Origin: Octopus vulgaris | Taxonomy: Eukaryota | Direction of reading: 5' to 3' | NCBI GenBank assembly: GCA_951406725.2 | Contig: OX597834.1 | Span: forward strand, 4,030,001 to 4,094,000 | DNA length: 64,000 nucleotides | In this document: positions 1 to 52,303 of the stretch, piece after piece | Layout: the number at the start of each line of letters is the position of its first letter | Numbering within the stretch: the first letter of the stretch is position 1 | Made by a program: the position numbers and the translations under genes | Notes under the pieces: model-generated | The model's database searches: none | What the model saw: only the letters and a program-made list of their open reading frames with translations | What the model was told of the DNA's origin: nothing

Positions 1-215
1 CCATACTCTTAACCCCAAGATTCTGAGTTCGATTCCAGGCAGTGACCTGAACAATAGCAACAACAACATCGAAAAATACCTTAGGAATGAGAATCCAGGT
101 TCGAAATTTCTGCAAGACACCTGATGAAGCCGAAACGTTGTGTTAACAACAAACAAGATGAGGAGAAATATCCGTCAATTGTAAATAATGTACATAATTC
201 CTCATCTCTTAAATA
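1..215 (+). mobile_element. tRNA-headed short repeat carrying a minimal hammerhead motif
   Basis: B-box-like GAGTTCGATTCC at 26-37. The body is homologous to 51462-51622. Confidence 0.7.
116..144 (+). ncRNA. Minimal type I hammerhead ribozyme relic (stem II collapsed)
   Basis: GACAC-CTGATGA-agcc-GAAAC-GTT-GTGTT. Both core boxes are intact and stem I pairs GACAC/GTGTT. Confidence 0.65.
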
Positions 216-1733
216 TAGAACTGAATGATGTTTACAAAAATGGACATAAAAAGAAGAAGGCAAAGTCAAGAGAAAGAAAGAAAGAAAAAAAAGAGAGGAG
301 GGTGTGTGTGTGTGTGTGAAAGAGAGAGAAATGCATGGAAAATGAAGAAATTTTAGATACTAATAGAATAAATACTATTCTGTTGACAAATAAAGCTAAA
401 CAGAAAAATACTTTTATCTTTTTCTGACTGTTCAAGGTATGAGTCATTAAAAGTAATCTCCCTCGGATATCGTCTCATTTCCATGTATATTAGTACCACC
501 ATCACTATATCGTTATCCGTAAGGTAATATATGTAAATGAAGACAACGGTCAACAGAAGATTGCTTTATACAAACAACAACAAACATACACACACATGTG
601 CACAAATAAAAAACAAAAAGATAACATAATACAAATAAAAATAACAGTAAATAAAAAAAACGAAAGCATGAAATAGAAAATGTTTCTTTTTTGAAAAGAA
701 AGGCAAAATAATGGCAAAAAAAAAAAAGTTTTAAAAAATAAATTAAAAAATATACAACAAAAGAAACAAAATAAATAAATAAATGTACAAACAAGCCAAA
801 AGTGCAAGAATCATTTAAAGGAAGCTGAAGCAAAGCGAAGCAATAGAAAAAAACAAGCTACAGGCAGGAAGAAGATAAAAAAACGTAAATAAGGGCAATA
901 ATTGCAACAAGATTATTATCATTATTAAATAATAATAATAACAATAATACTAATAATAATACTAATTATGATATTCAGCCACATGCAGTTCTCTTTTCTA
1001 CGAGGGGAGCGGGGCGTATTTTGGGCCCATTTGATCACAACATCACAAGCGGCACAAATACACAATGCTACAGACGGTAACACAACAGGCCCAGATGTCT
1101 TGGAGACACATCAGCAATGCAATACAAACTGAAGATTGTCCGGCTGGCGGTGGAACGCCTGTCCTATGTCTTGGACAACTGAAATTCTCCGGTTTCGACA
1201 TTTCCGAATATGCGCGCGCGTGTGTGTGTGTGTCAGCACACATGCACTCATACATATAAATGATTTCGGCATGTTGGGTTGGTAGTTAATAATTAGTAAT
1301 GTTTAGTAGTGTTTAGTAAGGAAAGCAATAAGAAATCATGCAGTTTCAAATTTAGGGGATTTTCTTAGGGTACAAAAAAATTAAAGGAAAAAAAAAAAAA
1401 AGAAGAAGAACCTAAATATAAAAGGAAATTATAAAAAAATACCATACCTATACCAAGCACATCTACGGTGGAGTGCGTGTGTGCATATGTATATCTGTGT
1501 GTGTATATATATACATATATATACACACACACACATGCATACACGCACACACATTCACACACGCACACATATATTATTTATTCATTTATATATATATATA
1601 TATATATGTATGGGTGTGTGAGTGTGAGGGAACATGCATGTAACCTTGATAAATATGTATCCATCAAAGAAGAAATAAAGAAACACAACCACTAAAACAA
1701 AACAAGCAGAGAAAGAACATTGAAAATAGAAAC

Positions 1734-42359: not shown

Positions 42360-42753
42360 ATTTTACTTGTTTCAGTCATTTGACTGCGGCCATGCTGGAG
42401 CACCGCCTTTAGTCGAGCAAATCGACCCCGGGAGTTATTCTTTGTAAGCCCAGTACTTATTCTATCGGTCTCTTTTGCCGAACCGCTAAGTGACGGGGAC
42501 GTAAACACACCAGCATCGGTTGTCAAGCAATGCTAGGGGGACAAACACAGACACACAAACATATACACAAACACTTTTATATATATACATATATACGACA
42601 GGCTTCTTTCAGTTTCCGTCAACCAAATCCACTCAGAAGGCATTGGTCGGCCCGGGGCTATAGCAGAAGACACTTGCCCAAGATGCCACGCAGTGGGACT
42701 GATCCCGGAACCATGTGGTTGGTTAGCAAGCTACTTACCACACAGCCACTCCT
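42360..42753 (-). mobile_element. CORE-type SINE inserted at the end of an RTE fragment
   Basis: Reverse complement of the 24651 family. Other minus copies lie at about 9060-9390, 13075-13470, 18285-18630, 20118-20507, 38435-39000, 39400-39775, 43535-43948 and 51935-52305. Confidence 0.85.
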
Positions 42754-42949
42754 GCTGTGTTATGCTTGTAAATATATATATTTACAAACATAACAGTATA
42801 CACATAATTATGTGCACAAATTATAATCCATGTATTACGATGTGTGGGGCATGGTTGAGAAAGACACCAGCTACTCTGCCTGCAACACCAAGGCTGAGCA
42901 GCCAGCCAAGATCAAGGAGGTGTTCAAAGAACTTGTCAGGGACAGTGAG

Positions 42950-43215
42950 AGATGCATGCTGCAGGATTACCCCAGACAACAGGACATGTGCAACCTGTGG
43001 AAAGGTGTGTCGTTCAGTTGGAGGATTAAAAACACATGTCAAAAGACTCCATTCTGTGGCACTGGTTCCTTCTGCCAGCCAGCACAATTCTGCATTATGT
43101 AACAAAATGTGCAAATCTTTGGCAGGACTCAACAGTCATATAAGGACTTCACACTGCATTACCAATGACTCATTTCAATGATTCATTCTAGTAATGGCTT
43201 TGCTTGGATACAAGA
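42950..43215 (+). mobile_element. RTE/BovB-type LINE C-terminal C2H2-like zinc-finger remnant
   Basis: TCATCGKVCRSVGGLKTHVKRLH and LCNKMCKSLAGLNSHIRTSH, adjoining a mariner fragment (42830-42960). Confidence 0.6.
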
Positions 43216-50904: not shown

Positions 50905-51671
50905 TCAATGTTGGATTCTGCAACTCTGTTAACTCTTTTAAGTATGCTTGCAAATATATAAGCAAAGGTTTAGATGCTGCAACATACAACCTTATGCAGT
51001 ATGACAGAGGAAGATACCAATGAGTACCAATGAGGCCCTTTTGGCGCATCTTCGATTTTCCCATTCCTGAGAGGCACCCAGCCATCATTCATCTGGGTGT
51101 CCATCTAAAGAATGGCCAAAGGGTTATCTTCACAAAACAAACAGCCTTGCAACGAGCACCTTCACCAAAAGAAACTACCCTTACTGTCATTTTTTAAGTT
51201 GTGTCAAGAAGATGAAGATGCAAGAAAACTCCTTTACCCACAATTACCCAAGTATTACACCTGGAGAAACAATAAATGGTACAAGAGAAAAGGTGGAGCT
51301 GATGCTCTTGCAAGAGCCAAGCAGAATGCTACTACTTACGGCTCCTTTTGCATGAAGTATGTGGTCCCAAACCATTCCAAGATTCAAGAAGGGTAAATGG
51401 TCATGCGTGTGAAAGTTATAGGAAGCATGCCAGAAATTCTCCTTCAATGCTAAATTCTCCTTCAATTCCAGGCAGTGATAACATCAAAAAATACCTTAGG
51501 AATGAGAACCCAGGTTCGAATTTTCCCCAAGACACCTGATGAAGACTGGAGAGTATAACAGCCAAAACGTTGTGTTAACAACAAACAAGGTGAGGACAAA
51601 TATCCGTCAAATGTAAATAATTTATGTAAGGAACAGTTTCAATCCCGGGCAATGTTGGGTGCCTCTGCTAG
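50905..51671 (+). mobile_element. Helitron RepHel fragment with 3' hairpin and CTAG, containing a nested hammerhead repeat
   Basis: FNVGFCNSV...CKYISKG, WRIFDFPI...HLGVHLKNGQRV and FFKLCQEDEDARKLLYPQLPKYYTW. Terminus cccgggcaatgttggg...CTAG|T at 51644-51672. Confidence 0.85.
51531..51576 (+). ncRNA. Minimal type I hammerhead ribozyme relic (GAAA>AAAA)
   Basis: GACAC-CTGATGA-a-GACTG-gagagtataa-CAGCC-AAAAC-GTT-GTGTT. Stem II is present with one mismatch. Same family as 116-144. Confidence 0.7.
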
Positions 51672-52303
51672 TATGTGTGTGTGTGTATAGACAGATAGAT
51701 AGATAGAGAGAGAGAGACTGATTGTGAAAGAAAGAAAGTGGGATATTTGTCGATCTAAAAGTTGAATTATTTCCCATAGCAAATTATATTTCAGACAATA
51801 TTCTCAAATTTGCTTTTCTTGAGGGCACACCAGTTCAGAGCCTTTTGGGGCTAAACACATACATAACCACATACACTTGCATTTATATAGTAGAAGATAT
51901 GCACACATATGAAAAATAAGTATATATTACTCTACTCTTTTACTTGTTTCAGTCATTTGACTGCAGCCATGCTGGAGCACTGCCTTTAGTCGAGCAAATC
52001 GACCCCGGGACTTATTCTTTGTAAGCCCAGTACTTATTCTATCGGTCTCTATTGCCGAACCGCTAAGTGACAGGGACGTAAACAAACCAGCATCGGTTGT
52101 CAAGCAATGCTAGGGGGACAAACACACACACACATACATACATGACAGACTTCTTTCAGTTTCCGTCTACCAAATCCACTCACAAGGCATTGGTCGGCCC
52201 GGGGCTATAGCAGAAGACACTTGCCCAAGATGCCACGCAGTGAGACTGAACCCAGAACCATGTGGTTGGTTAGCAAGCTACTTACCACACAGCCACTCCT
52301 GCA

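Follow-up and report, generated by a model that had tools for sequence, protein, structure and literature searches.

A tRNA-like head in the pseudo-LTR of an octopus Penelope-like element probably served as an internal Pol III promoter

The window analysed here is a stretch of 64,000 nucleotides from Octopus vulgaris, which opens with a repeat made of a tRNA-like head and a hammerhead ribozyme and holds a second, homologous copy further along. The repeat is the pseudo-LTR (pLTR) of a protein-coding Penelope-like element (PLE) and not a free-standing SINE. Its parts are listed below; the hammerhead was annotated with the feature list in the part of PMC4209133 that defines the minimal motif.

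1-223: window copy overall, one arm of a head-to-head PLE pLTR insertion
1..14 (-): inner end of the inverted arm, overlapping the window start and belonging to the same insertion as the forward arm
10..47 (+): 3′ half of the apparently tRNA-derived head; this copy lacks the A box and has the B box at 27-35
50..68 (+): (AAT/AAC)n tract, differing in length among copies, that separates head and ATG
87..89 (+): ATG at which the PLE ORF likely begins
116..144 (+): minimal type I hammerhead; stem I 116-120/140-144, core 121-127, GAAA 132-135
145..223 (+): 3′ part of the pLTR, with the two 3′ end sites of the family near 192 and near 223, which correspond to an optional PLE tail of ~30 nt
51461..51624 (+): second copy, with a B-box remnant, the AAT tract deleted, and a hammerhead with AAAA at 51564-51567

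The initial annotation had placed the first copy at 1..215. Its end lies at 223, and nucleotides 1-14 belong to the inverted arm. Retrieval of the upstream flank showed the copy to be one half of a head-to-head insertion, the inverted arm of which extends 218 nt beyond the 5′ edge of the window (locus L001 1282-1513) and has its own head remnant, (AAT)n tract and a hammerhead with stem II intact. The forward arm begins near nucleotide 10, so that the A box is gone, and no clear target duplication was found at this insertion. The B-box-like GAGTTCGATTCC described in the head is found at 25-36. A further GGTTCGAAA, taken for a second B box, is also present, at 98-106; as a promoter element it is rejected, because it lacks the closing C and occupies codons 4-7 after the likely ATG at 87-89.

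The complementary lesions described for the two copies are confirmed. The first keeps the core CTGATGA (121-127) and GAAA (132-135), together with a palindromic ACGT and a predicted cut between 139 and 140, and has lost stem II to a 17-nt deletion. Its homologue, which terminates at the first 3′ site, keeps stem II with one mismatch and has GAAA changed to AAAA. The deletion of the window type occurs exactly 11 times in the genome (21-nt pattern), and the same loss of stem II (window 121-135) recurs in unrelated copies, some of them ORF-linked (L005, L012, L021, L026 and L028), likely because slippage between short direct repeats has skipped the hairpin more than once. A 15-nt direct repeat (51434-51466) lies where the second copy begins at its 5′ junction. 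Directly 3′ of the same copy (51630-51675) lies a short hairpin with a CTAGT stretch, which we take to resemble a Helitron 3′ end, and a similar stretch precedes the head in locus L113. Elsewhere in the window, an ORF at 42537-43178 (+) gives weak C2H2 zinc-finger matches.

Across the family the hammerhead is of minimal type I, and all of the features given for minimal PLE hammerheads in the relevant part of PMC4209133 are present: CUGANGA and GAAA, an extra nucleotide separating position 9 from 10.1, the pair G10.1-C11.1, a palindromic 15.2-16.2, and stems I and II. The intact core that had been pieced together from the two window copies is real, as an exact 34-nt core occurs 2,048 times in the genome (reversed-pattern control 0). 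The hammerhead is broken in both window copies and intact in six of 19 head-anchored copies. One intact copy, L008, folds into stems I and II at -13.6 kcal/mol; shuffle z-scores of four other hammerhead copies are near 0.

Self-cleavage, which formed part of the initial reading, is doubtful as a contributor to mobilisation. Inserted copies span the cleavage site, and therefore uncleaved RNA was the template for insertion. In the activity data that we draw on from PMC4209133, a single minimal motif gave no cleavage and dimers gave low cleavage. Three unstranded RNA-seq runs, with equal strands and possibly from other species, contain no read that ends at the predicted ribozyme cut site, and show no discrete molecule starts or ends.

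The head aligns in register with genomic tRNAs. The best match is tRNA-Arg(TCG) (46/73, z=8.2, above all 200 shuffles) in a comparison that sampled Arg, Ala, Thr, Cys, Lys and Glu only, so the parent isotype is uncertain. A tRNA profile gave 34 matches in 30 head loci, and the head carries A- and B-box matches, with a predicted fold that is not a cloverleaf. Rfam returned neither a hammerhead nor a tRNA among the 150 of 156 window matches listed, nor on an intact copy. ARAGORN called no tRNA in the window or in any of the 30 head loci, and with relaxed thresholds made at most seven calls in the 30 heads. With Rfam and ARAGORN silent, it is the alignment to real tRNAs that marks the head as being, to all appearances, of tRNA origin.

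Head and hammerhead form one unit, as had been proposed. The hammerhead part follows 113 of 145 heads, in a collection that searches anchored on the hammerhead had enriched, and in a head-anchored set 19 of 30 are linked to it by score, with several more partial by eye. An independent neighbouring insertion of the head is rejected on these counts. Among 80 related metagenome PLE loci, an A plus B box lay within 400 nt upstream of none of 35 hammerhead-like cores (positive control 24/30), and the head thus looks specific to this PLE family.

The order of the unit is ORF stop, 33 nt, tRNA-like head, (AAT)n, ATG, hammerhead, tail and the rest of the ORF. Several copies have an ORF end upstream, and the head of the autonomous PLE lies ~33 nt 3′ of the stop codon. 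The longest stop-free ORF upstream of a head is of 569 aa and matches RVT_1 with E=2.7e-6, which is below Pfam's cut-off. Pfam gave no GIY-YIG match on the family's own ORF; this ORF aligns over its full length, through the GIY-YIG region, with 810-855-aa RT plus GIY-YIG homologues, three of which carry PF01541. [quoted passage not shown] A PDB sequence search returned weak RT matches only. Going by domain layout, the family is probably of the Penelope/Poseidon kind. The nearest relatives (P0001, P0003, P0005 and P0006) are 55-68% identical. Relatives at 53% identity (P0006 cluster), among the closest named matches, are annotated from a barnacle, a possible case of horizontal transfer among marine animals.

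In copies that bear the RT, the 3′ pLTR is forward and the 5′ arm inverted, and partial tandem pLTRs lie ahead of ORF starts. The likely ATG is in frame with the RT ORF in four of the nine tandem copies in which the motif was found, and the frame is fully open in L258. A similar N-terminal peptide runs through the ribozyme in P0003, a relative at 56% identity. None of the 55 best-scoring candidates has an intact full-length ORF and divergence among copies is 6-7%, and the family therefore looks inactive.

Insertion was characterised in 95 arms anchored on the hammerhead, all on chromosome C1 and drawn from the first 100 listed of the 2,048 core matches. An inverted arm adjoins 62 of the 95, and the 3′ ends cluster at two sites separated by ~30 nt (43 and 44 of 95), with no arm running more than 15 nt into the ORF at its 3′ end. 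Target duplications, which the initial annotation had proposed looking for across copies, were found: direct repeats of at least 8 nt flank 35 of 94, as against 1.4% of shuffled pairs, and of 37 target duplications of at least 7 nt, 31 flank whole palindromic insertions. The pLTRs, inverted copies, tail and target duplications match PLE features set out in parts of PMC8557442 and PMC11167929. With the RT plus GIY-YIG ORF, these signatures bear out the earlier suggestion that a Penelope-like enzyme, rather than a LINE, mobilised the repeat. Tandem arrangement was not the rule: copies stand alone or head-to-head and run across the cut site, direct tandems are only occasional, and the head-to-tail arrays bounded by cleavage sites that characterise retrozymes were not found.

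Some pLTR pieces begin inside the (AAT)n tails of other repeats (L109, L155, L150, L158 and L169, which are hammerhead-anchored loci on C1, as well as L101, L154, L181 and L260). Several of these host repeats are LINEs with a zf-RVT domain, and the pattern suggests insertion into, or joining at, AAT microsatellites. L133 and L134, ~1 kb apart on C17, are near-identical copies within long (ATT)n tracts and represent a local tandem duplication. Many ORF-start copies (L232-L258) end only 190-490 nt into the ORF, which suggests that RT also starts internally at sites other than those in the tail.

Forty 10-kb stretches chosen blindly (399,800 bases) contained two insertions and no ORF matches, giving by arithmetic about 14,000 insertions in the 2.8-Gb genome (Poisson range roughly 1,700-50,000). 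Only two of 58 copies not chosen for the core match its 34 nt exactly, a rate that suggests some 60,000 arms genome-wide. Short copies far outnumber those bearing the ORF, as only eight of 93 forward arms pass the head, and solo copies contain ~150-170 nt of ORF. The copies have an A/B-box head, a defined 5′ end and target duplications, as tRNA-derived SINEs do. They do not make up the separate SINE family first supposed. The same head occurs in ORF-bearing copies of the autonomous PLE, and no diagnostic non-CpG variant divides 87 short from 26 ORF-linked copies, the variable columns being C>T or G>A changes of the kind that CpG decay produces, except for one position in a 9-nt repeat. As the two groups are inseparable, there is no distinct SINE lineage; a separate subfamily is rejected, and a non-autonomous lineage distinct from its partner was not found.

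Most copies start at the head. After two duplicate anchors were dropped, 36 of the 44 forward arms that reach +12 stop at -20 to +12 of tRNA position 1, an end density of 4.4 per 100 nt at the boundary against 0.21, 0.37 and 0.27 in other intervals (12-20 times). Ends at -12 to -19 are mostly palindromic junctions that were read through. When either arm is counted, the stop is at the boundary in 48 of 60. In the head-anchored set 26 of 30 score at -8 to 0, or 25 once one copy was found by eye to continue upstream (the query began at -6), and both insertions from the blind 400-kb sample begin at -4/-5. The (AAT)n tract holds a second cluster of 5′ ends, 22 of 95. In the three RNA-seq runs, loose ends are most frequent at -7, where 330-400 reads per run leave the reference, and these reflect read-through of genomic copies, not RNA ends. 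Two other sources of the 5′ end were considered and rejected: an RNase P cut, since copies retain the leader before +1, and hammerhead cleavage, since copies span the cut site.

[quoted passage not shown] The family has no such run in 1,239 plus 1,555 column-majority sense positions (11 and 13 copies; ~2.6 kb), and 30 decayed natural copies have T4 at 0.53/kb. Among related PLE ORFs of at least 400 aa, from 43 of the 80 loci, none of 43 is T4-free (mean 5.0/kb), and 14 at matched T content have 2.6/kb, equal to 6.4 expected for the family ORF; these foreign controls are single copies, whereas the zero of the family comes from a column majority. In the same genome, another GIY-YIG family, with the same T content, has nine T4 runs in 2.9 kb, and an A plus B box in none of 15 copies. 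These external controls are stronger than the internal nulls, under which the absence of T4 over 735 codons has P=0.04 (synonymous permutation), 0.004 (composition) and 0.13 (dinucleotide shuffle). No G4 run is present either (0 vs 2.9 expected). Given the modest internal nulls and the absence of G4, the lack of T4 on its own is only suggestive. A control with LINE ORFs is weak (13 ORFs from about four families; T4/T3 0.21 vs 0.10).

The second GIY-YIG family (L393-L406; L080 6809-7687 (-)) is young and possibly still active, with copies 97-98% identical and intact ORFs of 770-784 aa. It has a repeated 3′ region with CRE-like and CCAAT-like motifs, and a pattern search found no hammerhead core in it.

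What has been observed is the anatomy of the unit, the marks of PLE insertion, a sharp 5′ boundary and an absence of T4. Because most copies start at the head and the element is without T-runs, the copies were likely made from Pol III RNA. The reading that we consider probable is that the spacer of the PLE pLTR holds an A/B-box head which served as an internal Pol III promoter, with a start ~6 nt before tRNA position 1. The initial suggestion of a Pol III-driven repeat is thus upheld in part: a start at the head gains indirect support from the 5′ boundary and the lack of T4, and the RNA-seq is uninformative. Translation of an uncapped Pol III RNA counts against a Pol III origin, which leaves it unexplained.

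Pol III would start ~6 nt before the head, read the whole T4-free unit and stop at a T-run in flanking DNA. The PLE protein would nick AT-rich DNA, and reverse transcription would begin internally at one of the two tail sites; for an anole PLE, the in vitro work described in part of PMC11167929 has shown such an internal start. Where reverse transcription began in the 5′ pLTR, or on the transcript of a solo copy itself, SINE-like copies of ~300 nt beginning at the head would result, and where it began in the 3′ pLTR, long copies, mostly 5′-truncated. A second, inverted arm would often be added at the 5′ end, and the hammerhead would have been left uncleaved in those RNAs that became inserted. 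On a broader proposition our judgement is evenly balanced, namely that an autonomous PLE took a tRNA-derived Pol III promoter, purged all terminators from its 2.9-kb unit and became its own SINE, with one transcript type giving rise both to ORF copies and to tens of thousands of short promoter-bearing copies.

We think it unlikely, while giving it real weight, that Pol II starts transcription of an otherwise ordinary PLE at the pLTR boundary, with the tRNA-like piece being either a relic of capture or an element lying downstream, and solo copies arising where RT begins internally in the 5′ pLTR of the mRNA. A TATA-like motif, as read from the sequence, overlaps the ORF stop 28 nt upstream of the boundary, and would fit both Pol II and TATA-assisted Pol III. 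Penelope of D. virilis, in the account of its pLTR in PMC2377424, has a LINE-like internal promoter there, short and long octopus copies form one family, and a Pol II mRNA would solve translation. However, a Pol II start leaves unexplained why the A/B boxes were kept while the cloverleaf was lost, and why the lack of T4 is specific to this family. The boundary, moreover, coincides with where tRNA genes start, and no intron joint was seen in RNA reads, depth on the ORF side being low.

A division of labour, in which Pol III makes only short SINE-like RNAs, largely from dispersed solo copies, and Pol II makes the mRNA and the long template from its own TATA or by host read-through, seems to us improbable. 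It accords with the small share of forward arms that pass the head (8/93), the want of ORF matches in 400 kb, and the slightly lower divergence of short copies (6.0% against 7.0% for ORF-linked copies, in sets chosen differently). The ORF stretch of ~150-170 nt in solo copies is also near the 172 nt needed by the anole PLE in the in vitro section of PMC11167929. However, the T4-free ORF would then be due to chance, and SINE-specific diagnostic variants are lacking. Very improbable indeed is a boundary that marks no transcript end, made where RT stalls or folds back at the short palindrome before the head: the palindrome could favour fold-back, and many junctions are centred on it, but its hairpin is just 4 bp and the boundary is equally sharp without fold-back there (24/29, among 58 such copies).

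To our knowledge, Pol II (or Pol I co-transcription, as in R2) serves the retroelements that code for protein, and Pol III is confined to non-coding SINEs. If Pol III copying of the octopus element is true, a PLE with a tRNA-type promoter and a terminator-free ORF breaks this rule. It would also be a missing link between PLEs, retrozymes and the ribozyme SINEs of schistosomes, and would show how SINEs of the Sm-alpha type can arise from a PLE. Two questions become open to test, namely which polymerase produces the PLE template and whether the hammerheads of PLEs have a bearing on insertion, and a simple screen suggests itself, for T4-free ORFs with upstream A/B boxes in other genomes.

Classical tRNA SINEs have an A/B-box head, a defined 5′ end, a LINE-derived tail in common with the mobilising element, and target duplications. 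The octopus copies resemble them in the head, the defined 5′ end, the 3′ end held in common with the mobilising element and the target duplications. They differ in that the partner is a PLE which already holds the whole unit, in having no poly(A) tail, and in the frequency of inverted arms. The closest likeness among PLEs, as far as the relevant parts of the two reports go, is to PAc of Anolis carolinensis (PMC11167929) and Penelope of D. virilis (PMC2377424), with a single ORF of RT and C-terminal GIY-YIG, partial-tandem pLTRs, inverted 5′ copies, a two-site tail, an ORF start overlapping the hammerhead region, and insertion without need of cleavage. Unlike Penelope, with its LINE-like internal promoter and intron, the octopus PLE has an A/B-box head and (AAT)n in its spacer; unlike theirs, its 5′ boundary falls sharply at the head and its sense strand is free of T4.

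Metazoan non-LTR retrozymes, in the descriptions drawn on from PMC7761336 and bioRxiv 10.64898/2026.07.22.740005, are likewise hammerhead-bearing non-coding repeats related to PLE pLTRs. In those descriptions they are tandem arrays that make circular RNA and are said to lack promoters, whereas octopus copies start at a promoter-like head and not at the cleavage site. The words tRNA, promoter and Pol III do not occur in the portion of the bioRxiv text covered. In the openly accessible literature covered, which included parts of PMC6962438, no description of an autonomous PLE bearing such a tRNA-derived head came to light; the supplementary sequence files of PMC8557442, PMC4209133 and the bioRxiv preprint could list the family.

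The combination of a tRNA-like head and a hammerhead, first regarded as an unusual class, has a precedent in schistosomes. Sm-alpha has a tRNA part and a hammerhead, and its transcription by Pol III has been reported, according to the passages concerned in PMC6765202, PMC2770079 and PMC4918200. Like the octopus repeat, Sm-alpha and Sj-alpha have a tRNA-derived part followed by a type I hammerhead and reach very high copy number. Unlike it, they are described in these passages as non-coding and often tandem, with canonical active ribozymes and no autonomous partner named. The octopus head sits in an autonomous PLE, its ribozyme is minimal, and its copies are solo or head-to-head. Copying of a PLE by Pol III would be new for the class, and the joining of a tRNA head to a hammerhead is already known from Sm-alpha.
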